UHGV virus genome: UHGV-0313764
DNA length: 46,129 nucleotides
Source: a virus
Strand: one strand, 5' to 3'
How positions within the stretch are numbered: the stretch's first letter is position 1; every line of letters starts with the position of its first letter. A program made the translations under genes and the position numbers. Shown here piece after piece: positions 2,165-12,798 of the stretch. The notes beneath the pieces were generated by a model. The model did not search any database and was not told the origin of the DNA. It worked only from the letters and a program-made list of their open reading frames with translations.

Positions 2165-2379
2165 CACGCAGAGAAAGAAAAAGTACGACTGAAAGTTAGT
2201 GAACGTTAGCTTACATACATAGTTACATACATTACTAATAGTAACCTTTGTTTATTACCTCTATAAAGTATATTAAGATCTTCTTTATATTTATTATAGA
2301 TATTAATACCTTACGCTACAGAAACACGAAAACCAGCAATTAAGCTGGTTTATTTGTTAATGAATTTGGTTAGTTTTGA

Positions 2380-2650
2380 ATCCCAAGTTATCGGGAAGCG
2401 AAATTCCTTTTGTTTTCAGTATTTTCCGTTCGCTTCCCAGCTTCCCGAAAATACCCCCCCTTTTTTTTATGATTAGCTTTTGTTTATCCATTTTTTTGAC
2501 TTGGGAAGCGAACACATAAACTATTGATTTTGCTTAATATTGGCTTCCCGAGAATTTTTCTCATTTACCTATATACTATTGAAAGATAAAGGAAAAATTA
2601 AGCTCTGAAATATTAATACGCTTTTTCTGGAAGCGTGTCAACTCAGGAAG
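2380..2650. repeat. iteron cluster (GGGAAGCGAA core in both orientations) within an AT-rich intergenic region; putative replication origin
   Basis: Copies of the core are at 2391-2400 (GGGAAGCGAA), 2431-2440 (inverted TTCGCTTCCC), 2443-2449 (CTTCCCG), 2504-2513 (GGGAAGCGAA), 2543-2550 (inverted) and GGAAGC at 2629 and 2645. A C7T9 tract lies at 2453-2469. The flanks are very AT-rich. Confidence 0.45.
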
Positions 2651-2757
2651 CAAAGTATGTAGGTTGCTATTAAGTGTTTCTTCGTGCACTTGCTGAATTA
2701 TAGAAAAGTTGATATATTAAATTGAGTTTACTGTTGATTGATTCTCTGGAGGTTGTC

Positions 2758-2973
2758 ATGTACAGGTTTGGTAGCGCAATGGCTGAGGTGTATGAGTTTG
2801 TTGGCGGGATGTCGATTGGAGAGGTGCGATTTTTTGTGGTAGATGATTTCCGTGCCAATAACAGTATTGAAAAATTCAGGGCGAGCCTGTGTTGTGTTGC
2901 GAAAGATAATTCGTGGCTTTTTGTAACCAGAAAGATGGAAGAAGGCGAAGTGTCTGTTCGGAGAATTAAATGA
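2758..2973 (+). CDS. hypothetical small protein (72 aa)
   Basis: An internal ATG at 2758 is preceded by GGAGG. The stop overlaps the primase ATG (ATGATGA). Confidence 0.35.
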   Translation: MYRFGSAMAEVYEFVGGMSIGEVRFFVVDDFRANNSIEKFRASLCCVAKDNSWLFVTRKMEEGEVSVRRIK

Positions 2974-5303
2974 TGATTGGTTATGAAGATTACCGCAAAT
3001 GTGGCTTCCCTATTATTGGAATCCATGCAATGGATATCGACCGCAATTGCACATGCGGTGATCCAGATTGCAATGCTGCTGGTAAGCATCCGGTTATGAG
3101 TAACTGGCAGCTTGGAGTTATATGGGCTGATGACCAGATTGAGAATATGGCTGAATATGGTCAATTGCAGTCATTCGGTGTCCTTGTGAATGGTTATCTG
3201 GTAGTTGATATTGACCCACGCAACGGAGGTAATGATGGATATGAATCGCTTTGTGATGCCTTAGACGTAGAGCTTGCTGACGAAGCAGGTTTTACGGTCA
3301 AGACTGGTGGCGGTGGTCGCCACATCTATTACAAACTTCCTGAAGGAATAAAGCTGCGCTCTCATGACAGAAGGTTTAAGGGTATTGACTTTAAATCCTC
3401 TGGTTTTGTTGTTGGCTGCGGCTCATTCCATAAGTCAGGTAACTTTTATGAAGCTGAGCATGGCTCCCCTTCAGAGATAACTGAATGTCCATCTGAACTT
3501 ATTGATCTTTTGTTGCGCCCTGAGAGAACGGAAGACGAGGTTTTCACGCTTGATAGTAAAAATTACAGCATTGCCGAAATGGAGGATATGCTCAAATACA
3601 TCAAAGATGGTGATGAGTATGACCCATGGCTTCATGTGGGTATGGCTATCCACGAAGCTACAGAAGGCAATGGTTTTGAGCTTTGGGATAGATGGTCATC
3701 GCAGTTCAGCAAGTACAGAGCTGAAGAGATGGATGCAAAATGGCATTCCTTTGGAAAGGACGGTGTTAGTGAAAAGATAACTGAAGCAACGCTGGTTTAT
3801 CTTGCGCAAGAGGGAGGGTGGGTAAGGCAAGTAACTTTTGAGGCTACTCCAGAGGAAATTGAGAAACTTGAGTTTTTCGAGCGAGAGATGGCAATGGGTG
3901 TTGGTGAATGCCCTGTAGAGTACAAAAGTGTTGATGTCCGTTATCCGCCTGGATTTGTTGGTCGCCTTACGTCGTGGATTAATAAGAACTGTGCAGAGAA
4001 GCGAGAGAACATTGCAGCACTTGCCGCATTGCATGCCGCATCCATGATTTGCGGAGCGTCATCTGATATTTACCTTACAAACAGGAAGGCTTTACCAAAC
4101 CTTTTTGCTGTTGGTATCGCTGGTTCAGGTTCAGGTAAGGGTGATGTCCTTGCTGCGCTACAAAAGATAATTGATTGCTCAGGATTGAGTAAGACTGTCG
4201 CCGGTAAGATACGCTCAGAGCGTGCGATATATGAAGGTCTTTGCGCTAACCAAATGTTTAATATCATCATGGATGAGATTGGGATAAAACTTGGTAGTGT
4301 TGTTGGTCAGAAAGTAAGCGAGTACAACATGGCAACCGCTGGTGCGATTATGGAGGCTTACACGTCAGAAGTTCTTTATTGTGACCAGCGGGTTACTGAG
4401 GATTTCATTAAGTCTTTCGAAAAGAGAAAGGCTATGCTGTTGATGGCTATTGAGGAAAATGAGATACAGGCAGACCCCGTTGACATTAAGTGTCAGTTTG
4501 ATGATGTGATAAACAGAATTGACGGAGCTATAAGGAATCCATTTTTTTCAATCTTTGGTGTGTCTACTGATGATCAGTTTAAGCGCCTTATTACTGAAGA
4601 AAACATTAAGTCAGGTCTTATGGGTCGCGCAATGATTATGCAGGAGTTACAGGAGATTGCTGACGAAAACGAAAACGTTAACTACTGTGATCTACCTATG
4701 GATATGCAACTGACCATAAAAACAATAATAAATGGTGGAACGGCTGGGCACAAAAACTGGACAGACTCAATAATCAGTCAAAAAGAAAGACGGATTATAA
4801 AAGCTACGCCTGAAGTTTCTCAGCTCGCTAAGGAGTTCTTCTCATGGATTAAAACCGTTGCAAGAAAGCATGTAGAAAATGGTACTGGTTATCACCCATT
4901 GATAAACAGATGCGCCGTGAAGGTGGCAAAGATTGCTGGCATTCTCGCGTGCGATACTGGCGTCATAACCATGGAGCACTTGAGGTATGCGGTAGCATTA
5001 ACAATTAAATCAACAAGCGATCTGATGATGCGTGCTGACAGTATCGCCGGAGCGAAGTCTAAAGCTATGGAAGAACGAATTGAAGGTATTTTCTCCATGG
5101 TTAAAGAATATGTGAAGCGTGGAATGACCAAAACAGCAATGGTTAGAGGGGTAGCAAAAGAAGGTGGGTATAAACGTGCTGATGTCGAGAGGTGCGTAGA
5201 GAAGTTGTTATCAGATGGTATTATTTGCATTGATGAAAATGCAAAAAGAACATCTCACAACGTAATAATTTACAAATTAACAAATGATGAGGTTGAGATA
5301 TGA
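2970..5303 (+). CDS. DNA primase-polymerase (archaeo-eukaryotic primase-like N-domain plus PriCT-like domain plus C-terminal NTPase-like region)
   Basis: 777 aa. The N-terminal region (LVVDIDPRNGG, hhDhD acidic motif) matches the PrimPol family. A PriCT-like region is present (YDPWLHVGMAIH...WDRWS). A glycine-rich loop GIAGSGSGKGD follows, a degenerate Walker A. It sits directly downstream of the iteron region. Confidence 0.7.
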   Translation: MMIGYEDYRKCGFPIIGIHAMDIDRNCTCGDPDCNAAGKHPVMSNWQLGVIWADDQIENMAEYGQLQSFGVLVNGYLVVDIDPRNGGNDGYESLCDALDVELADEAGFTVKTGGGGRHIYYKLPEGIKLRSHDRRFKGIDFKSSGFVVGCGSFHKSGNFYEAEHGSPSEITECPSELIDLLLRPERTEDEVFTLDSKNYSIAEMEDMLKYIKDGDEYDPWLHVGMAIHEATEGNGFELWDRWSSQFSKYRAEEMDAKWHSFGKDGVSEKITEATLVYLAQEGGWVRQVTFEATPEEIEKLEFFEREMAMGVGECPVEYKSVDVRYPPGFVGRLTSWINKNCAEKRENIAALAALHAASMICGASSDIYLTNRKALPNLFAVGIAGSGSGKGDVLAALQKIIDCSGLSKTVAGKIRSERAIYEGLCANQMFNIIMDEIGIKLGSVVGQKVSEYNMATAGAIMEAYTSEVLYCDQRVTEDFIKSFEKRKAMLLMAIEENEIQADPVDIKCQFDDVINRIDGAIRNPFFSIFGVSTDDQFKRLITEENIKSGLMGRAMIMQELQEIADENENVNYCDLPMDMQLTIKTIINGGTAGHKNWTDSIISQKERRIIKATPEVSQLAKEFFSWIKTVARKHVENGTGYHPLINRCAVKVAKIAGILACDTGVITMEHLRYAVALTIKSTSDLMMRADSIAGAKSKAMEERIEGIFSMVKEYVKRGMTKTAMVRGVAKEGGYKRADVERCVEKLLSDGIICIDENAKRTSHNVIIYKLTNDEVEI

Positions 5304-5722
5304 TCAATTACAAGTATCTGGTGATGAGAGGTTTGTATGACTATTTTGAGTCAGAAAATCCTGAGCGCGCACATGATAACGCAATATCCATGATGACAGG
5401 GAAACACCTGATGGAAGTTTACTACTGGAAAATGCCCGTATTCCGCTGCAATATGGGTATCTGCATTGATGATGACGTACTGTTTTGTCGAATACAATAT
5501 GAAAACAATGTAGGTATAGTGACAGCATCGTACAGGGATGTTGCAAGAAAATCCGGGAACTGGCATCCAAGCGAAGTTTTTGCGGGTGACGCACTATTTA
5601 ATTTCTGTAAGGCGTTTGGTGTTTTGTATGAGGATGTAAGCAAAGAGTATAGCGGAAGGCGTGAGAAAGATAGCTTGAGTTCCAAGGGCGTGACTAACTA
5701 CAAGGATAAAAATCATGGCTAA
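5300..5722 (+). CDS. hypothetical protein (140 aa)
   Basis: ORF overlapping the primase stop (ATGA). No family recognised. Confidence 0.4.
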   Translation: MINYKYLVMRGLYDYFESENPERAHDNAISMMTGKHLMEVYYWKMPVFRCNMGICIDDDVLFCRIQYENNVGIVTASYRDVARKSGNWHPSEVFAGDALFNFCKAFGVLYEDVSKEYSGRREKDSLSSKGVTNYKDKNHG

Positions 5723-6020
5723 CCTACATCTTGCCGTCAAAGGCGTATACTTCGATGCCATGCTCCGTGGAGAGAAAACTGAAGAGTATCGCCTTTTTAA
5801 TGATTCCTGGAAGAAACGCCTTGTTAACTTTAAAGATAGCGGACAGATTGGAAGGAAGTACGAACGGTTAATTATCACAAAAGGATATCCAAAGAAGGAC
5901 GATAAATCCAGGCGGATTGAAATCCCATACGAGGGATGGACGGTTAAAACCATCACACACCCTCACTTCGGCCCTAACCCAGTGGAAGTGTTCGCAATAA
6001 AAGTTAACATCAAAGCATAA
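5715..6020 (+). CDS. hypothetical protein (101 aa), possibly a PUA/ASCH-like beta-barrel domain
   Basis: ORF with start overlapping the previous stop. Weak resemblance to ASCH/DUF3850-type small proteins (N-terminal hLhhK..YF.AhhpGpKp.EhR). Confidence 0.35.
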   Translation: MANLHLAVKGVYFDAMLRGEKTEEYRLFNDSWKKRLVNFKDSGQIGRKYERLIITKGYPKKDDKSRRIEIPYEGWTVKTITHPHFGPNPVEVFAIKVNIKA

Positions 6021-6052
6021 CAAAAAGCCCGCAAACGCGGGCTTTATTATTT
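6021..6052. terminator. bidirectional Rho-independent terminator
   Basis: Hairpin AAGCCCGC-aaac-GCGGGCTT flanked by an A-run upstream and TTATTATTT downstream. It lies between the convergent plus-strand gene (stop 6020) and the minus-strand regulator (stop 6047). Confidence 0.6.
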
Positions 6053-6289
6053 AACAATCCATTTTGTAACAGCTGGCCTCAAATCTTCCTTTCTGAAAAC
6101 TCCACCAGTAAGCGCCTCGGCATCAATTGCTGCTGTAGCGCTAATTCTTCCTCTTGACACCCACTGATTGACAGCCTGTTTTGACACACCAAGAAACCTT
6201 GCCAGTTGTGATTGCCCTCCAACATAATCAATCAGCTCTGACAGCTTCGTCTGTTCCATTTCTCTTATCTGTTCTGCGATGCTTTTCAT
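6047..6289 (-). CDS. Cro/CI (XRE-family) helix-turn-helix transcriptional regulator
   Basis: HTH motif GGQSQLARFLGVSKQAVNQWV. The internal start MKSIAEQ has an AGAGG RBS. It is divergent from the Sak4-like operon. Confidence 0.6.
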   Translation of the reverse strand: MKSIAEQIREMEQTKLSELIDYVGGQSQLARFLGVSKQAVNQWVSRGRISATAAIDAEALTGGVFRKEDLRPAVTKWIVK

Positions 6290-6423
6290 GTGTTTACCTC
6301 TGCTATCTGTATGCAGCAATAATGAACTCAAAAAAAATTTTCGTCAAGGTATTGCGTTTACCAACACGTTGACGTATCTTTAAGTCACACCAGCGATATG
6401 CTGAGTTAAATCGAGGGGACACT

Positions 6424-7266
6424 ATGAGCTTATCAATGATTCAAAAACCAAAACCAGCAGCGCCAATCATAACATTGGTTGGTACTCCAGGTGTAGGCAA
6501 GACAACTCTTGCGGCGCTATTCCCAAACCCAGTGTTTATTCAGGCTGAAGAGATCACTGGTGTTTTTGATGACTGGGATGATGAAAAGAAACCAGATTCA
6601 TTTCCTGTACTGAAGCGAGCTGATGCTAAACGCAAAACAAGCACAAAGGATGATTTGCTGTCACAGCTACGCGCATTAATTACTGAGGAACATAATTACA
6701 AAACGCTTGTAATTGACTCAATCACAAGCCTGCATTCAATGTTTGAGCATGAGGTTTGTGAAAATTACGGTGTTGACAACGTAGGTTCTGCGGCTGGTGG
6801 TTACAACAAAGGATATATTGTTGTTTCTGAAATGCACGCTGAAATAATAAATGCATGTAAGTATCTTCGCAAAGAAAAAGGGATGAGCATTATTTATCTT
6901 GCACACGCAGGTGTTAAAAAGATGAAAAATCGCCCTGATGCTGATGAATACACTGTTTACACACTTGACATGCATGATGCTTCTGTTTCTGGCTATGTGA
7001 ATCTTAGCGATGCTGTTATTTACATCAGGAATGAGGAGTTCGTGAAAGGAACTGAGACTGATAAGAAAGGGCAGGTGACCAAGTTTGGAAAGGTTGTTCA
7101 GACTGGTCAGCGAGTTCTTATTACATCTGGCGATGGTAGAGTTGGATATGTTAATGCAAAAAACAGATACAACCTTGAGCCTGAAATTCCTTTTGAAAAA
7201 GGTGAGAACCCACTTTTGAGTGAGATTAAATATTATGCATCTCTACGAGATAACCAAACAGCTTAA
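6424..7266 (+). CDS. Sak4-like RecA-fold ATPase (AAA_24-type recombination/annealing-associated ATPase)
   Basis: Walker A LVGTPGVGKTT near the N-terminus. Size and context (next to Gp157-like and SSB-like genes) fit phage Sak4 modules. Confidence 0.65.
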   Translation: MSLSMIQKPKPAAPIITLVGTPGVGKTTLAALFPNPVFIQAEEITGVFDDWDDEKKPDSFPVLKRADAKRKTSTKDDLLSQLRALITEEHNYKTLVIDSITSLHSMFEHEVCENYGVDNVGSAAGGYNKGYIVVSEMHAEIINACKYLRKEKGMSIIYLAHAGVKKMKNRPDADEYTVYTLDMHDASVSGYVNLSDAVIYIRNEEFVKGTETDKKGQVTKFGKVVQTGQRVLITSGDGRVGYVNAKNRYNLEPEIPFEKGENPLLSEIKYYASLRDNQTA

Positions 7267-7714
7267 TGAACTGATGGCGATGGAGGATATTCCACGGGAG
7301 CAGATTGAAGATACCATCAATCTTATTGAAGAGGAGTTTGAAGGAAAAGCTGAAATGGTCGCTGCTTACATTCGTGAGCTTGAAGCTGATGAAGCTGGAC
7401 TTAAATCCGAGATTGACCGCCTTTCTGAGCGTAAGCGTGTTTTAGTTGCGAAGATTGATAACCTTAAAGATTATCTTTGTCAGAACATGATGGCGTCAGG
7501 AAAGACAAATATCAAAGGTAAGTTGTTCAGTATCACTCTTGGCAAACCGTCACCAGTTCTTGATGTGTTTGTCCCTGTTGAACAGCTTCCTGAGCAGTAC
7601 CGCGTTGTGAAAGTGTCGGCAGATAAAGCAGCAATTAAAAATGCGATAAAAGCCGGGATTGAAATTAATGGTTGCGCCATCACCGACGGCAAACCGAAAC
7701 TGATCATCAAATAA
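7235..7714 (+). CDS. Gp157-like protein (siphovirus Gp157 family), coiled-coil N-terminus
   Basis: ATG at 7235 overlaps the Sak4 3' end. Acidic coiled-coil N-terminus and neighbourhood are typical of Sfi21-type Sak4/Gp157/SSB modules. The family call is an inference. Confidence 0.45.
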   Translation: MHLYEITKQLNELMAMEDIPREQIEDTINLIEEEFEGKAEMVAAYIRELEADEAGLKSEIDRLSERKRVLVAKIDNLKDYLCQNMMASGKTNIKGKLFSITLGKPSPVLDVFVPVEQLPEQYRVVKVSADKAAIKNAIKAGIEINGCAITDGKPKLIIK

Positions 7715-7731
7715 ATCGAGAGGACACAAAA

Positions 7732-8253
7732 ATGGGTTTCTGGAATCTTTCTGACGGTAAAGCTGTTGAATCTAAATCTGAATTTGAACTGGGTGGTGGT
7801 TTCGAAGTAATTCCTGATGGCAGTCGTGTTCTTGCTGCCGTTGAAGAATGTAAAGACGACCAGTGGGAAGGTGAGCGATTCTTTAATCTTAAGTGGCGAA
7901 TCCTTGAGGGTGAGTATAAAAATCGCATCATCTTCCAGAAGCTGAAAGTATTTAGCTCAAAAGAAAAGCAGCGCGACAATGCTATCACTATGCTTGCAGC
8001 AATTGACGCAAACGCAGGTGGCAAGCTGATGGCTTCAGGTAAGGAGCCGACTGATTTTGCTATCGCCAGTGCGCTTGCAAATCGCCCAATGATTCTTCTT
8101 TTGCGAGTTTGGGAGTCTGAGGATAAGCAAAAAACTGGTAACTATGTGGCTGGCGTTTTCAGTCGTCAACAGACAAAAGCAGCGCCTGCTCCTAAGCAAT
8201 CTGCACCGTCTAACGAACCTCCGATGGATTTTTCTGAAGATGTGCCGTTCTGA
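7732..8253 (+). CDS. putative ssDNA-binding protein whose C-terminal tip mimics E. coli SSB
   Basis: ATG at 7732 is preceded by the conserved AAATCGAGAGGACAC motif. The C-terminus ...QSAPSNEPPMDFSEDVPF closely matches the E. coli SSB tail ...SAPAAPSNEPPMDFDDDIPF. The N-terminal domain is not E. coli SSB-like. Confidence 0.55.
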   Translation: MGFWNLSDGKAVESKSEFELGGGFEVIPDGSRVLAAVEECKDDQWEGERFFNLKWRILEGEYKNRIIFQKLKVFSSKEKQRDNAITMLAAIDANAGGKLMASGKEPTDFAIASALANRPMILLLRVWESEDKQKTGNYVAGVFSRQQTKAAPAPKQSAPSNEPPMDFSEDVPF

Positions 8254-8267
8254 TTAAGATTGGAATG

Positions 8268-8295
8268 ACAGGGCCATTCGTGGCCCTTTTTTATT
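8268..8295 (+). terminator. Rho-independent terminator or attenuator upstream of the helicase gene
   Basis: Hairpin GGGCCA-ttcg-TGGCCC followed by TTTTTTATT. It lies 13 nt before the helicase ATG, so partial read-through is required. Confidence 0.55.
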
Positions 8296-8307
8296 CGAGA
8301 GGACACT

Positions 8308-10176
8308 ATGAAAGTACAGCTTAGAACATACCAACAAGAAGCTGTTGATTCTGTTATAGGTCATATTCGTTCAAGCGTTTCATCATGCATGATCATTTTG
8401 CCTACAGGGTCTGGGAAAAGCGTTGTTGTTGCATCAATAGCCGATTGGGTTTTTAAAAATACTGGCAAGCGCGTTTTGTGTGTTGCCCCAACAAGTGAGT
8501 TAGTTGTGCAAAACAGGCAGCGTTATCTTTCTCTAACAGGAGAACCAGCCAGCATGTTTAGCGCTAAAGCTGGCCCTAAAAATCTTCGCCACCCGGTAGT
8601 ATTTGGCTCTCCTGTCACAATAAAAAATTCTATTGAAATGTTTGGTGATAAGTATGGCGCTGTCATTATTGATGAATGTGATGGAATAACGCCAACCATT
8701 AAATTTATTATTAATGAGATGAAGCGTCGCAATCCAAAACTGCGTGTTATTGGAATGACCGCTACGCCTTATCGCCTTGGAACTGGATACATCTACAAAG
8801 AGCACTACCTCGACGGTCCTACAGATGAAGAAACAGCCATAGAGCCATATTACGACAAAGTCGTTTATGAGCTTGAAGCTAAATTTCTCATAGAAAACGG
8901 ATACCTTACTCCTCCAGTGACAGAGCCTGTTTTTGACGAGTATGATACGTCTTGTCTTGAAAAGGATAAGTTAGGTCGGTACACGACAGCTTCAGTTGAA
9001 AAGGCGATGGTTGGAAAAGGAAGAAAAACATCACGTATTGTTGAGGATATTATCCGTCGCTCTGTTAATCGGCGCGGAACGATGATTTTTGCCAGCACCA
9101 AGAAACACGCTATGGAGATAATGGAGTCACTTCCTCCCGGTTCTTATAGTTATGTTTTTGGTGATATGCCAACAGCAGATCGCAACAAAGCAATATCAGA
9201 CTTCAAGGCGCAAAAGGTTAAATACATCGTTAACCAGAATATCCTTACTGTAGGGGTGGATGTTCCTCATTGTGATCACATAGCAGTAATGAGAGCCACA
9301 GAATCACCAAGACTCTACCAGCAAATAATTGGCAGGGGGACGCGTCTTTATGAAGGCAAGAAAGACTTTCTTGTCAGCGATTACGCAGGCAATATTCAAC
9401 GTCACTTTTCTGAGACCGGGGACTTGTTCACTCCAGAAATAAAAGCAACAAGGAAAAAACCATCAGTCCCAATGGATGTTAAATGCCCGTTATGTGGCTT
9501 TATCAATGAATTTGGTGTGCGTCCTAATCCTGAAAATCTTGAAGTTGACAAGGAAGGTTACTGGCTTGATTTGGCTGGTGACAGGGTGATGATTGATATT
9601 TTTGATAAATCAGGTGAAAAAATTGGAAGCAAGCCTATGCCTGCTCATTTTGGGAGGAGGTGTAAAAACTACGTTATGCATGGGCCATTAAGGGAAATGC
9701 ACAGGTGTACTTATAAGTGGTCGGTGAAAGAGTGTCCTGATTGTGGATTTGAAAATGATATAGCGGCAAGAAACTGCACATCATGCGGCGCTGAAATCAT
9801 TGACCCAAACCAAAAGCTAAAAGAAGAAGCTGACAGGCTTGATTCTTCTCCTTATGCAACAAAGCAATCAAGCGTAACCATGATGAACATCATGAAGCAT
9901 TACGTTTCAAGCGGTGAAGATTTAGTGCACGTAAAATTTGCTATTGAACAGAAACCATTTTTTGTTAGCAAGTTCTACAATCCAAACTCTGAGAAGGAAT
10001 GGATGAAGAAGGAGTGGGAAGAGTTTTGTGGGAGGTGCTTTGGTGAATCTGGCATGTCAATTGATGACGCAATATCTAAAAGAGATGAGGCTGTCGCGCC
10101 ATCAGTGATTATGTTCAGAAGAGATAAAGGAAGTAAATATTTCAACGTTAAAGGCATGTATTGGGGTGTATTATGA
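8308..10176 (+). CDS. SF2 DEAD/DEAH-type helicase with C-terminal zinc-ribbon inserts
   Basis: Motif I ILPTGSGKS, motif II IIDECD, motif III GMTATPYR, motif VI QIIGRGTR. C-terminal CxxC pairs (CPLCGF..., CPDCGF...CTSCG). Confidence 0.75.
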   Translation: MKVQLRTYQQEAVDSVIGHIRSSVSSCMIILPTGSGKSVVVASIADWVFKNTGKRVLCVAPTSELVVQNRQRYLSLTGEPASMFSAKAGPKNLRHPVVFGSPVTIKNSIEMFGDKYGAVIIDECDGITPTIKFIINEMKRRNPKLRVIGMTATPYRLGTGYIYKEHYLDGPTDEETAIEPYYDKVVYELEAKFLIENGYLTPPVTEPVFDEYDTSCLEKDKLGRYTTASVEKAMVGKGRKTSRIVEDIIRRSVNRRGTMIFASTKKHAMEIMESLPPGSYSYVFGDMPTADRNKAISDFKAQKVKYIVNQNILTVGVDVPHCDHIAVMRATESPRLYQQIIGRGTRLYEGKKDFLVSDYAGNIQRHFSETGDLFTPEIKATRKKPSVPMDVKCPLCGFINEFGVRPNPENLEVDKEGYWLDLAGDRVMIDIFDKSGEKIGSKPMPAHFGRRCKNYVMHGPLREMHRCTYKWSVKECPDCGFENDIAARNCTSCGAEIIDPNQKLKEEADRLDSSPYATKQSSVTMMNIMKHYVSSGEDLVHVKFAIEQKPFFVSKFYNPNSEKEWMKKEWEEFCGRCFGESGMSIDDAISKRDEAVAPSVIMFRRDKGSKYFNVKGMYWGVL

Positions 10177-10628
10177 TTTTTCCAGAAGGCGTTAAGGTAT
10201 ATGGCGATTTAGATTACAGAAACAAAAAGTGCCCGTCAGAAGATGCTGAACTGGAGACTTTTGTTAATCAGATAAGGAAGCTATATCCTGACTTTGCAAG
10301 AGTTATGATTCATGTGCCAAATGAAGGCAAGCGTAAAGGGTATGAAGTTGAAAACCTGAAGAAAAAGGGCGCGTTAAACTTCGGTGCCTCGGACATCATT
10401 ATCATCGGAAAGCAATCATTCGTTATGGAGATGAAGAGAATGGATCACACTTTATCAAAGTGGCAACCAGGGCAAATGGCATACCTCAAGGCTGCAAAAG
10501 AATTAGACTCCTTCGCGTGTGTATGTCTAGGCTGGGAAGCGGCAATGATGGCATTTAACGACTGGAGAGCAATAAATTACCCAAACTATAAAAAACCATC
10601 AGAGCCATTAATATTTGATGGTTTTTAA
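10173..10628 (+). CDS. VRR-NUC (PD-(D/E)xK) nuclease
   Basis: ATG at 10173 overlaps the helicase stop (ATGA). Motifs HVPNEGKRKG...GASDIIII...EMK match the VRR-NUC catalytic core. Confidence 0.6.
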   Translation: MIFPEGVKVYGDLDYRNKKCPSEDAELETFVNQIRKLYPDFARVMIHVPNEGKRKGYEVENLKKKGALNFGASDIIIIGKQSFVMEMKRMDHTLSKWQPGQMAYLKAAKELDSFACVCLGWEAAMMAFNDWRAINYPNYKKPSEPLIFDGF

Positions 10629-10748
10629 CAACAACGCCAGCAATCAGGACAGCAACCTCAACGTCAACAACAGCAGCAGACAAAACAACAAAGCCCACAA
10701 GGAGTCAATGAGCCACCGATGGACTTCGATGATTCAATACCCTTCTGA
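10629..10748 (+). other. ORF-less segment, in frame after the VRR-NUC TAA stop, encoding an SSB-type Q-rich linker plus acidic tip
   Basis: Translation in the VRR-NUC frame gives QQRQQSGQQPQRQQQQQTKQQSPQGVNEPPMDFDDSIPF*. The only in-frame ATG is 9 codons before the stop. Confidence 0.5.
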
Positions 10749-10934
10749 TGATAAAACTAACCCCGCCGAAGCGGGGTTTTTCGTGCTCAAGCGCTCAACT
10801 CGTCAGATGTAGACATGCCAACAACACACCAGTAGTCGTAGTTGACGTCATAGACCAGGGAAATACCACGATGTCTCCCGGCAGCAGGAGGTGTTTGTGT
10901 TGAAGGTAAAGCTGATGGAATACTGCAAAACGAA

Positions 10935-10965
10935 AAAGCCCCTCAATCGAGGGGCTTATATTTTA
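10935..10965. terminator. bidirectional terminator between the replication module and the tailspike gene
   Basis: Hairpin AGCCCCTC-aatc-GAGGGGCT with an A-run upstream and TATATTTT downstream. It overlaps the tailspike stop. Confidence 0.6.
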
Positions 10966-12798
10966 AATCGCAGTGACACTGTAATTACCAAATGAGTCAG
11001 CGGTTATCCGATTGGTGACAACTATCTCCCCTGTAACCCTGTTACCCCACGCTGCATTTTCAGCTGTTTGACCTGGATTCCCATTAGGATCTTCTAACCT
11101 AATATCCCCCCCGATATGGTTATTGTATGCAACATGACGTTTAGGTCCGCCAGTACCCTGGGAGTTCGTAGTTGCTCGGATGCCGTAATCAGTCTCTACC
11201 AGAGATGGTATTATATTTCCGTCATAGATAGCTCCAGACCCGGAGGTTCCTGTTGAACCGACATCCGCCCATATCCCGCGCTGGAGCTGACCAACGCCTC
11301 TGTTTCTGGAGAACCGGGGTGTGTTAATGGAGGCAAACCTAGCAATATCGAAAGTGTTTACACATAGATTGTCTTCGTAATCGAACGTCCCACCATATGC
11401 AAGAAAGACAGGTCTGAGCTTTTTACCAATAGAAGTCGCATCGAAAAATATATTAGAGCTTATTTTGCATCGATGTGTGTATTCTCGAGAATCTGTACGT
11501 ATTGCTGTAGTGTTAACTCCGGTGTAGTCGTCAGTCATAACAAACCAATTCCCATGCACCAGCATATCATCGTCAGATGAAAGGTTGTATATGCAACCTT
11601 CACCAGCAAAAGAATCAACAAAAAAGTTATCAGATATAGTTGTACGACCAAGCAAATCTTCAAGATGGATCGCGCTATCGCCAGCAGTCCTTCGAATTAA
11701 GTTGTTTGAGATGGTGACGTCTTCAAGCTCAGTCATTCCAACGAATCTTTGTTCCGTAGCTAGAGAGTTCCAGTTATCAGCCCCGTCGTATATATTAGAC
11801 AAAATCTGCCACGATCTGGTGCCAATAGATGCAGAGTTAGCTTCAACAAAGTCATATTTCATATTTCTGGCGTTATTATTAATTATGCGAACATTATTAC
11901 TAGCATATCCAACCTGCTGTATAATACCGTACCCTGTACCATCAAATACATTGTTTGCCACGGTCACATCTGAACATGCCAGCAATAGCACAATTTGGTT
12001 TTGCCCATTGAAAAAGTTACCAGATATACAAACATCCACAGCTCCGTTGTACGGAGAAATGACGGCAGGTGATAAGCCAGTCAACTTGAGACCAGAAACG
12101 GTCGTCCGAGAATTCATCCTGATAATGCTGGCAATGTTCGCGCAAACGACAGACGGGCGGCCATAACCAAGTAGCTCGAAATCGTCAGGCAGTTCCATAA
12201 TCGACGATATGTTGTAGGTACGGTCGCTCGTCACGAACAGTGATTTGACACCGTCAGCAGCAGCACGGTTAATTGCGAGTGTTAGATTCGTCTCAGACGG
12301 TAGCATATAGTCATTGGCTGTTGGGACGTCTTTTAGCTTATCTCCTACAGTGCGAGGAACATCATCAACGCGAGAAAAACCTACCATCAGCGACCCTAGT
12401 TTACTAGAGAGTTGCTGACGCAGTGATGCATCACCAACACTAACCCATGCACCAAGACCAACACCACCTGTTGTTGCCGGAGTTGAACCAGCTGGCACTG
12501 TTTTTGGCAGGTCGCCATCCCAACGGTAATACTCGCCAGTTGCCTCATATCGCAAAACCTGATTAGGAAGTGTCAGTGTCGAGCCATCTTCGAAGCTATC
12601 CATTGTGATATAGCCATAGTTGCGAATCGCTTCTTCTGCGGTGTATTGGAATCCAGCAATAGTCCAGCGGCGCACACCGAAACGATCGGTATAGTAATGC
12701 GATTCAGATGTCACTACCTCGTCAATTTTCCCAGCATTAAATTTAAGGTCGCGAGGGTCTTCTGACGGAATTGGTTTATTAGTTGGGGTGGTAGCCAT
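10963..12798 (-). CDS. tail fiber/tailspike with right-handed beta-helix (pectate-lyase fold); candidate depolymerase
   Basis: 611 aa. N-terminal conserved anchor region (GEYYRWDGDLPKTVPAGSTPATTGGVGLGAWVSVGD). Central repeats rich in N/G/I/V (NNVFDGTGYGII..., VRIINNNARN...) typical of parallel beta-helix. Confidence 0.65.
   Translation of the reverse strand: MATTPTNKPIPSEDPRDLKFNAGKIDEVVTSESHYYTDRFGVRRWTIAGFQYTAEEAIRNYGYITMDSFEDGSTLTLPNQVLRYEATGEYYRWDGDLPKTVPAGSTPATTGGVGLGAWVSVGDASLRQQLSSKLGSLMVGFSRVDDVPRTVGDKLKDVPTANDYMLPSETNLTLAINRAAADGVKSLFVTSDRTYNISSIMELPDDFELLGYGRPSVVCANIASIIRMNSRTTVSGLKLTGLSPAVISPYNGAVDVCISGNFFNGQNQIVLLLACSDVTVANNVFDGTGYGIIQQVGYASNNVRIINNNARNMKYDFVEANSASIGTRSWQILSNIYDGADNWNSLATEQRFVGMTELEDVTISNNLIRRTAGDSAIHLEDLLGRTTISDNFFVDSFAGEGCIYNLSSDDDMLVHGNWFVMTDDYTGVNTTAIRTDSREYTHRCKISSNIFFDATSIGKKLRPVFLAYGGTFDYEDNLCVNTFDIARFASINTPRFSRNRGVGQLQRGIWADVGSTGTSGSGAIYDGNIIPSLVETDYGIRATTNSQGTGGPKRHVAYNNHIGGDIRLEDPNGNPGQTAENAAWGNRVTGEIVVTNRITADSFGNYSVTAI

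Follow-up and report, generated by a model that had tools for sequence, protein, structure and literature searches.

In the virus genome UHGV-0313764, a stretch of 46,129 nucleotides to which we refer as the window, the reading frame of a small nuclease gene stays open for 39 codons beyond its own stop codon. The additional codons spell a Gln/Pro-rich linker and an acidic tip of the type found at the C-terminus of single-strand DNA binding proteins (SSBs). This arrangement raises the question whether the tail is attached to the nuclease by read-through of the stop codon or is the remnant of an SSB gene; both explanations were offered by a reader who had only the sequence (the sequence-only reading).

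Organization of the locus

The relevant features of the window are listed below with coordinates, strand, and the basis of assignment where one applies.

2167..10626, + strand, replication/recombination module differing from the ~90% identical Akira-type backbone (blastn against Akira; Pfam, PHROG)
6424-7266, + strand, Sak4-like AAA_24 ATPase (Pfam, PHROG)
7220-7714, + strand, Gp157 (Pfam, PHROG)
7729..8253, + strand, DUF669 SSB-like protein, the phage's own non-canonical SSB (PF05037, E=1.2e-5; phrog_9002 'single strand DNA binding protein', E=3.9e-69)
8308..10176, + strand, DEAD/ResIII helicase, stop codon overlapping the nuclease start (ATGA)
10173..10628, + strand, VRR-NUC-like nuclease (phrog_824), 151 aa with C-terminus ...PLIFDGF, native TAA at 10626-10628 and C at +4
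10629..10745, + strand, 3' relic of a canonical PF00436-type SSB gene, Gln/Pro linker and tip
10707..10745, + strand, SSB-Ct tip NEPPMDFDDSIPF inside the relic
10746..10754, + strand, original SSB stop cluster TGA TGA TAA
10759..10783, no strand assigned, Rho-independent, bidirectional-type terminator hairpin AACCCCGCCGAAGCGGGGTT with a T run, the original SSB-gene terminator
10936..10957, no strand assigned, second bidirectional terminator hairpin, just 3' of the convergent tailspike gene
10963..12798, - strand, tailspike gene convergent with the nuclease; homology to the Akira backbone returns from 12424, in the N-terminal part

The nuclease ORF ends in GGT TTT TAA followed by C, and frame 0 past this stop codon translates as QQRQQSGQQPQRQQQQQTKQQSPQGVNEPPMDFDDSIPF (39 codons, 117 nt). 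Both layout and translation agree with the sequence-only reading, which had described a 39-codon in-frame stretch after the TAA (UUU-UAA-C) with a Gln/Pro linker and an SSB-type tip. It had also noted the lack of a plausible independent start, and indeed no in-frame ATG, GTG or TTG occurs before codon 32, the Met of PPMDF (10722-10724). The relic lacks an OB fold as well as a start codon and ribosome-binding site of its own, and approximately 120 SSB codons are missing. As an independent small ORF the window offers only the 9-aa MDFDDSIPF, whose internal ATG is not preceded by a ribosome-binding site at a suitable spacing.

The family label of the nuclease requires some caution. Pfam returned no match for the window protein, which does not pass the PF08774 model; three of the 35 family members reach only E ~0.02 with this model, which is below the cut-off. 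The protein belongs to phrog_824, a PHROG family of unknown function. A profile of the nuclease family matches the solved VRR-NUC structure 4qbl (E=3e-4) across the D...ExK...Q core, and the residues of this PD-(D/E)xK-type core (G-x-x-D ... E-x-K ... Q), namely D74, E86, K88 and Q101, are invariant in the family. The VRR-NUC identity given by the sequence-only reading is thus backed at the level of the family profile and not by Pfam, and the label is a remote assignment only.

The tail is homologous to the 3' end of intact SSB genes

Window positions 10627 to ~10781 align with the last ~40 codons and the terminator of intact SSB genes at ~91% nucleotide identity (E ~6e-57). Such genes are annotated in Akira, ASO78B, Segz_1, KFS-SE2 and other phages, and the likeness is far beyond chance and reflects homology. 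In the canonical SSB genes (PF00436) of Akira-, ASO78B- and Segz_1-type phages, the ~91% identical DNA comprises the last 39-40 codons with the NEPPMDFDD[SD]IPF tip, the stop cluster and the terminator. The acidic C-terminal tip ...DFDD[DS]IPF is present in the relic in a form identical to intact alleles, and the stop cluster is likewise identical. The terminator is conserved 3' of intact SSB genes and is annotated on both strands in ASO78B. The Akira SSB matches PF00436 via residues 5-106, and these residues have no counterpart at the relic locus, where the match to the Akira gene begins in the linker.

Whole-genome blastn shows the window to be 88-95% identical to Akira over nearly the whole genome, with no nucleotide match to Akira within 2167-10626; matches stop at 2166 and restart at 10627. 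The sister phages as a set (Akira, ASO78B, Segz_1) are ~90% identical to the window nearly throughout, apart from this interval. The interval contains a primase-size ORF, the Sak4-like ATPase, Gp157, the DUF669 SSB-like protein, the helicase and the nuclease. In Akira a nuclease homologue (36% identical) is encoded directly 3' of the helicase, and an exonuclease, a recombinase and the SSB lie between this homologue and the same terminator and tailspike. Alignment with intact SSB genes puts the homology breakpoint at the nuclease stop codon. Because homology to the sister phages restarts precisely there, the tail is likely the right-hand scar of a replication-module swap of ~8.5 kb. The comparison with relatives finds an intact, separate SSB gene whose 3' end is matched by the relic, the comparative outcome that the sequence-only reading had named in advance as speaking against read-through. 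Its suggestion of an ancestral SSB remnant is strongly supported by this homology; what replaced the rest of the gene, however, is the entire module 2167-10626 and not the nuclease gene alone.

Presence and frame of the relic among related phages

We compared the relic among lineages of the 151-152 aa nuclease (loci of relatives are numbered with the prefix L). Among close relatives it proves dispensable: it is absent from ECO95 1-6-1, gmqsjt-1, L032-34 and L038-L042, is shifted to the +1 frame in L031, in L043 and in VLCpiS13b, a cultured Klebsiella phage, is interrupted by an in-frame TAG in L015, and has decayed in the phages PhAPEC5 and phi G17. In a Klebsiella group (L018-L025 and RSU-F4K5) it is in frame and joined at a different linker position. 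Two diverged nuclease lineages with 65% amino acid identity (groups 1 and 2) both have the tail in frame, and of 25 relatives with an in-frame relic, about 24 keep its ORF open. As to a source allele for the relic in the +1 frame, whose tip reads …PPMEDDIPF, none of the intact SSBs at the retrieved loci has this tip.

There are three junction types, two in frame and one in +1, and the chance of at least two out of three being in frame is ~0.26. Any one junction has a 1-in-3 chance of being in frame, and relatives do not conserve the in-frame placement. Stop contexts in relatives are UAG-C, UGA-A or UAA-A, compared with UAA-C in the window. The stop right after the terminal Phe is found at the same position in relic-less lineages, where it is followed at once by the terminator, and therefore it belongs to the nuclease gene.

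Probable exchange between the relic and intact SSB genes

The divergence of the relic is uncoupled from that of the adjacent nuclease. Within group 1, dS ranges from 0.03 to 0.45 for the nuclease and from 0.3 to 1.9 for the relic; for the pair L011 and L015, nuclease dS is 0.034 and the relic p-distance is 0.19. The nearest neighbour of a relic is an intact SSB allele, and not another relic, in eight out of ten cases, so that relic alleles nest among intact ones, and diversity along the relic equals that of intact SSB tails. L010, from group 1, and L019, from group 2, have identical sequence in the tip, in the terminator and in the first part of the region beyond it (~100 nt shown). Within relics dN/dS is low, and all observed indels are multiples of 3.

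These data suggest that the coding-like look of the relic comes from recombination with intact SSB genes, in that alleles selected in working SSB genes appear to have been copied in repeatedly. Synonymous-only differences in the tip were considered as a sign of selection on a translated tail and were dismissed on account of the uncoupled divergence and the nesting among intact alleles. The variants MDDDIPF, NEPTMDF and QGVNEPP, which could be taken for degenerate relics, all occur in intact SSBs.

The same relic and terminator are present beside a tailspike gene in the N4-like phages PhAPEC5 and phi G17, where the relic is interrupted by stop codons and altered at key residues. In PhAPEC5 the segment has its match in the siphophage ASO78B, across the 3' end of the SSB gene, the terminator and the tail-fibre gene, and the O78-type tailspike was co-transferred with the relic into the N4-like phages. 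Homology between phages breaks just 3' of the terminator, and the tailspike differs from phage to phage.

The phage's own SSB-like protein

The DUF669 SSB-like protein ends in SNEPPMDFSEDVPF, which is the first SSB-type tip in the window. The sequence-only reading took the end of the tail to be a second copy of a host-SSB-like tip. A first tip does exist in the window, at the end of the 7729-8253 protein, but the relic is not its duplicate: the resemblance is at the protein level only, with almost no nucleotide identity and a longest exact run of 8 nt. DUF669 proteins encoded beside sak4 are distantly related SSBs, and stimulation of Sak4 depends on their last 6 residues (PMC5928155). The module in the window has the same pairing as phage HK620, a Sak4 with a cognate DUF669 SSB carrying an SSB-Ct-like tip (PMC5928155). 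This parallel concerns the working SSB at 7729-8253 and not the relic at 10629-10745.

Origin of the tail and alternative explanations

The homology and its breakpoint, the synteny, the variation in presence and frame among lineages, and the uncoupled divergence of relic and nuclease lead us to infer that the 117-nt in-frame tail is very probably a piece of a canonical phage SSB gene that goes untranslated and stayed behind at the right-hand joint when a module was exchanged. The order of events would be as follows. The starting point would have been an Akira-type siphophage backbone with helicase, nuclease, exonuclease, Erf-type recombinase, SSB, terminator and convergent tailspike. This backbone would have gained a different early/replication module, comprising Sak4, Gp157, the DUF669 SSB, the helicase and the VRR-NUC-like nuclease, with the joint falling just after the incoming nuclease's own stop codon and, on the resident side, within the Gln/Pro linker of the SSB. 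The resident gene would have lost its OB fold and kept 39 codons at its 3' end, together with its stop cluster and terminator. The terminator would still be needed between two convergent transcription units, and the linker-plus-tip DNA would simply lie between the nuclease stop and the terminator, without a protein product of consequence. The relic would keep exchanging with intact SSB tails of co-infecting relatives, and would also move with the neighbouring tailspike module.

Several observations do not sit easily with a scar. The tail is in frame in two diverged nuclease lineages, with C at +4 or, in the Klebsiella group, A after UGA; the open ORF and low dN/dS would fit selection on a translated tail, were recombination not their cause; a near-cognate tRNA-Gln would put Gln into a Gln-rich linker; and basal read-through must yield some fused molecules. 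C at +4 is among the weaker stop contexts. These points lead to the alternative in which UAA (UAG or UGA in relatives) is read through at a low level by a near-cognate tRNA, producing a nuclease with an SSB linker and SSB-Ct tip that would dock onto SSB-tip-binding proteins, either host partners or the phage's Sak4. The frame shared by groups 1 and 2, the ORF open in nearly all in-frame relatives and the indels in multiples of 3 are all in line with such a product, and because the Sak4 of HK620 needs an SSB-type C-terminal tip (PMC5928155), a tip-binding partner in this module is plausible. The base after the window stop is C and not U, the +4 base that best suppresses read-through, but the stop itself is UAA, reported to be the stop codon least prone to read-through in bacteria (PMC5289835). 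Moreover, the relic is missing from at least six lineages of this nuclease, is in the +1 frame in three genomes and contains a TAG in L015. A stop-free fusion of nuclease and tail is not found in a collection of 5.8 billion proteins, in which the 57 nuclease-homologue clusters measure 119-152 aa and none covers the tail. The window contains no tRNA genes, including any phage-encoded suppressor, and no stimulatory RNA structure is evident 3' of the nuclease stop (z = -1.8). The low dN/dS is probably accounted for by allele import, and relics in the +1 frame are equally intact in their own frame, so that a relic can stay intact without being translated as an extension of the nuclease. Functional read-through is accordingly very improbable, and the nuclease with an SSB-Ct docking tail proposed by the sequence-only reading finds no support. 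We are just as doubtful that the relic is exploited through rare Gln-inserting read-through, giving a minor nuclease isoform with a flexible SSB linker and tip that would be recruited to tip-binding proteins at replication or recombination intermediates, as the reason why two in-frame lineages kept it.

The relic might instead be kept as useful DNA, with the SSB tail and terminator serving as a homology patch for exchange of the tailspike on the right and of the replication module on the left; lineages keeping it would then recombine more successfully. The break in homology just 3' of the terminator next to a tailspike that is different in each phage, the identical tip and terminator DNA extending into the tailspike side in both nuclease groups, the crossovers inside the relic implied by the divergence and nearest-neighbour data, and the movement of the relic with the O78-type tailspike into N4-like phages are all compatible with this idea. 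However, lineages that lack the relic share the terminator and can be presumed to exchange tailspikes, selection for evolvability is difficult to demonstrate, and passive hitchhiking fits the same data; we regard the idea as unlikely. It is hardly conceivable that the locus was once a true fusion, with nuclease and SSB tail joined in frame through a Gln codon, and that a C-to-T substitution turned CAA into TAA (or CAG into TAG) to give the present stop. The TAA or TAG does align with a CAA or CAG codon in the linker of intact SSB genes, but derivation of the stop from a Gln codon is ruled out by its native position in relic-less lineages, and the protein collection searched above holds no fused relative.

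Relation to known systems

Gene remnants at mosaic junctions are known from tailed phages, in which illegitimate recombination occurs at module boundaries, as in lambdoid phage and mycobacteriophage genomes. We found no earlier description of the relic in the literature, and we consider it a fresh instance of this class. Like other remnants, it shows an abrupt homology break at a gene boundary, is a truncated 3' fragment that matches a gene intact and syntenic in sister phages, and is present in a lineage-dependent manner. Unlike them, it is in frame with the upstream gene, is kept sequence-fresh by exchange with intact alleles, and also accompanies a tailspike module into unrelated N4-like Gamaleyavirus. 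The A1 coat extension of Q-beta is a case of programmed read-through at a leaky UGA, with an extension that is conserved and essential. Both loci have an in-frame ORF after a stop codon, but here the stop is UAA, and there are relatives that lack the extension or have it out of frame. The helicase-primase gp4 of T7 has an acidic, Phe-terminated tail that resembles the tail of gp2.5 and is encoded within its regular ORF. This case shows that a replication protein other than an SSB can dock through an SSB-like tail, the notion from which the read-through hypothesis starts; the tail in the window sits behind a stop codon. If read-through did take place, the locus would be a rare case in a bacterial virus of a docking tail supplied in this way, but the evidence points elsewhere.

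The locus illustrates cleanly how a gene fragment left behind by phage mosaicism can pass for a coding extension. When recombination brings in functional alleles, an open frame and low dN/dS may come with them and do not necessarily signify translation of the fragment. The SSB tail and terminator mark a recurrent exchange boundary beside tailspike genes, even between siphophages and N4-like podophages, and this boundary is useful for tracing the transfer of host-range modules. For annotation, the tail should stay out of the nuclease gene call, and the overlapping 65-aa ORF that Sf11 carries under the name gp12 is probably not a real gene.

Locus layout and the nuclease gene

The sequence-only reading had placed 39 in-frame codons with no independent start behind a TAA-C nuclease stop, and this description proved accurate when the locus was re-read from the window:

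8308-10176, helicase gene, upstream of the nuclease ORF
10173-10628, nuclease ORF (151 aa), starting with ATG at 10173 and ending GGT TTT TAA, with the stop at 10626-10628 and C as the +4 base
10629-10745, SSB-like relic of 39 codons in the nuclease frame, QQRQQSGQQPQRQQQQQTKQQSPQGVNEPPMDFDDSIPF, followed by TGA TGA TAA
10759-10778, terminator hairpin, 3' of the relic
10936-10957, second hairpin, just beyond the end of the tailspike gene
10963-12798, tailspike gene, convergent with the nuclease

No start codon occurs in the relic frame upstream of the Met in PPMDF. A 65-aa ORF in another frame (10615-10812, plus strand) overlaps the relic and crosses the terminator hairpin; it is probably not a gene, and its counterpart in phage Sf11 is annotated as gp12, "hypothetical protein".

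The nuclease ORF gave no match in a Pfam search and belongs to PHROG 824, whose function is unassigned. When a profile was built from 35 members of the family, it aligned with 4qbl, a solved VRR-NUC structure (E=3e-4), over the invariant D74, E86, K88 and Q101; the VRR-NUC identity proposed earlier is thus reasonable as a "VRR-NUC-like" label, though a remote assignment. Phe plus stop occupies the same position in all family members of 151-152 aa, including lineages in which the terminator directly adjoins the gene, and the stop is therefore native. Every member of this subfamily (P0001-P0016 in the protein collection; window 10590-10625) carries a C-terminal extension of about 20 residues, absent from more distant homologues, that ends hydrophobic-x-x-Phe-COOH (IFDGF, IDIESF, IIDNF, IQIDSF, ITINHF). 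Because the conserved terminal Phe follows an acidic or polar residue, as in C-terminal docking tails, the native end may itself be an interaction motif. In ECO95 1-6-1 (L006, ~3660-3735) a TAG lies eleven codons ahead of the usual end and so truncates the extension; the old frame runs on to the usual ...F-TAA, abutting the terminator.

Origin of the in-frame tail

Window positions 10627-10781 are ~91% identical to the 3' end and terminator of annotated single-stranded DNA-binding protein genes in the siphophages Akira, ASO78B, Segz_1, KFS-SE2 and others. These phages carry a separate intact SSB gene, which the sequence-only reading had proposed looking for in relatives, in the order helicase, nuclease homologue (36% identical to the window nuclease), exonuclease, recombinase, SSB (PF00436), the same terminator and a convergent tailspike. 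Between the window and Akira, identity is 88-95% across nearly the entire genome, with no nucleotide match for 2167-10626; homology restarts at 10627. The unmatched block encodes a different replication/recombination set: a Sak4-like ATPase, Gp157, a DUF669 SSB-like protein, the helicase and the nuclease. Alignment locates the joint exactly, with ...GGT CAG CAA CAA CCA CGC CAG CAA TCA GG in intact SSB genes and ...GGT TTT TAA CAA C[CA]A CGC CAG CAA TCA GG in the window group. Together with the homology break, this identifies the tail as the scar that an exchange of an ~8.5 kb module left on its right-hand side. The earlier proposal of an ancestral SSB remnant is thereby supported by match and synteny, and extended from replacement of the gene's 5' part to exchange of a whole module. 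It adds one more case to a familiar class, the gene remnants found at mosaic junctions of phages.

The DUF669 SSB-like protein (7729-8253) has the C-terminal sequence SNEPPMDFSEDVPF, which closely resembles the E. coli-type SSB tip, and its gene adjoins those for the Sak4-like ATPase and Gp157. The arrangement is the same as in HK620, where Sak4 depends on the final six residues of its SSB (PMC5928155). Nucleotide comparison of the tips ruled out the relic as a copy of this protein's end. In the protein collection, one SSB (P0062, 120 aa) has an internal deletion fusing the OB fold straight to the linker (…KGSQVYIECQLPRQQSG…), which again points to a Gln/Pro linker region that rearranges readily.

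Relic arrangements and the read-through question

We surveyed sixteen loci from IMG/VR, several phages in GenBank and additional metagenomic contigs, and found four arrangements. The relic is in frame in a first group (the window, Sf11, Sa179lw, YX3973, ECO111 5-P and L010-L015; nuclease stop TAA or TAG) and in a second group of Klebsiella phages whose nuclease is 65% identical to that of the window (RSU-F4K5 and L018-L025 were read; VLCpiS13c, phage 6991 and vB_KpnP_XY3 match the arrangement). In this second group the joint lies ~25 codons deeper in the linker (TGA ATG AAA CCA...), and the intact counterparts that the relic matches are SSB genes in Klebsiella phages, BUCT541 and VLCpiS13a among them. 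In L031, L043 and the cultured phage VLCpiS13b a short relic (QQPSNSPPMEDDIPF*) sits in the +1 frame, and the nuclease frame meets a stop after 11 codons. Finally, in ECO95 1-6-1, Salmonella phage gmqsjt-1, L032-34 and L038-L042 the relic is absent and the terminator directly follows the stop. The in-frame tail is not conserved across nuclease lineages; its occurrence in two of the three junction types is within chance expectation (P ~0.26). All three relic types begin CAAC[AC]A, 0-4 nt from the stop, and may go back to a single ancient join or to independent joins at microhomology.

The other explanation offered earlier, functional read-through producing an extended nuclease, is very improbable. 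A protein search with the hypothetical fusion, covering 5.8 billion proteins, matched 57 nuclease clusters, 119-152 aa in length, but no cluster reaches the tail, and the stop-free fusion sought among relatives was not found. The tail is missing or in the +1 frame in several lineages, and a TAG interrupts the relic of L015. The stop is UAA, reported to show the least read-through in bacteria (PMC5289835), the window encodes no tRNA genes, and no notable structure was found 3' of the stop. The +4 base does lean the other way, being C and not U, which suppresses read-through best (PMC5289835). Trace read-through is expected here as at any stop, and nothing indicates its use.

Side observations concern the edges of these arrangements. 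In L032 and L042 the "relic-less" spacer, made up of the ~30 nt behind the nuclease stop, is TAG CCTCTAACCACCAAAAACTAACCCCGCC. It contains CCACCAAAA(A)C, the linker codons for PPKQ of the SSB fused to AAAACTAACCCC, which is normally found after the SSB stop. This spacer looks like a relic shortened by internal deletion, so that relic-less forms may be derived and not ancestral. In the Klebsiella-phage relatives (L018-L025, ~3454-3530; L027, ~4558-4635) the relic opens with an ATG directly behind the nuclease stop (TGAATG; TAAATG in RSU-F4K5), starting a 24-codon mini-ORF, MKPSNTQKPPANEPPMDFDDDIPF; termination-reinitiation could in principle yield a free SSB-tip peptide from it. In L023 this ATG is replaced by ATT.

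Coding-like appearance of the relic

At first sight the tips of different relics show synonymous differences only. As a coding signature this is outweighed by the excess of relic dS over nuclease dS and by the nesting of relics among intact alleles. Within the first group, dS is 0.03-0.45 for the nuclease gene versus 0.3-1.9 for the relic; L011 and L015 have near-identical nucleases (dS 0.034) and relics differing at 19% of sites. For eight of ten relics the nearest neighbour is an intact SSB allele and not another relic, and L010 and L019, from different groups, share an identical tip, terminator and next ~100 nt toward the tailspike gene. The uncoupled dS, the nesting and the shared flank indicate that recombination with working SSB genes has overwritten the relic repeatedly, and that the relic travels with the tailspike module. 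Its low dN/dS would then have been acquired elsewhere, in those working genes. Along its length the relic is as diverse in nucleotide sequence as intact SSB tails are, and the apparently degenerate variants MDDDIPF, NEPTMDF, QGVNEPP and QQRQQSG all occur in intact SSBs. Relics in the +1 frame are as "intact" in their own frame as in-frame relics, so intactness is independent of translation from the nuclease. It is mildly instructive that recombination maintains the pseudo-coding signature of a relic, and that an SSB tail with its terminator forms a recurring exchange boundary beside tailspike genes.

A natural control for the coding-like siphophage relics is provided by the N4-like Gamaleyaviruses PhAPEC5 (L029, 3500-3620) and phi G17 (L030, 3500-3600), in which the same relic and terminator are intergenic beside the tailspike gene. 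Both relics are decayed (QQQ*TPKQ*NPHGGNEPTMGPDNSIPF and ...NEPPMGFSDDIPL, respectively). In PhAPEC5 the match to ASO78B runs from the SSB 3' end across the terminator and into the tail-fibre gene, which points to a tailspike module having passed from one phage family to another and taken the relic along. The relic would have hitchhiked into a phage family without a matching SSB to refresh it.

Elsewhere in the relatives, in YX3973 (L004, region 1471-2514), the helicase is annotated at 941 aa versus 622 aa in the window, and its gene has a ~1 kb block inserted near the 5' end, perhaps an intein or a homing-endonuclease insertion.
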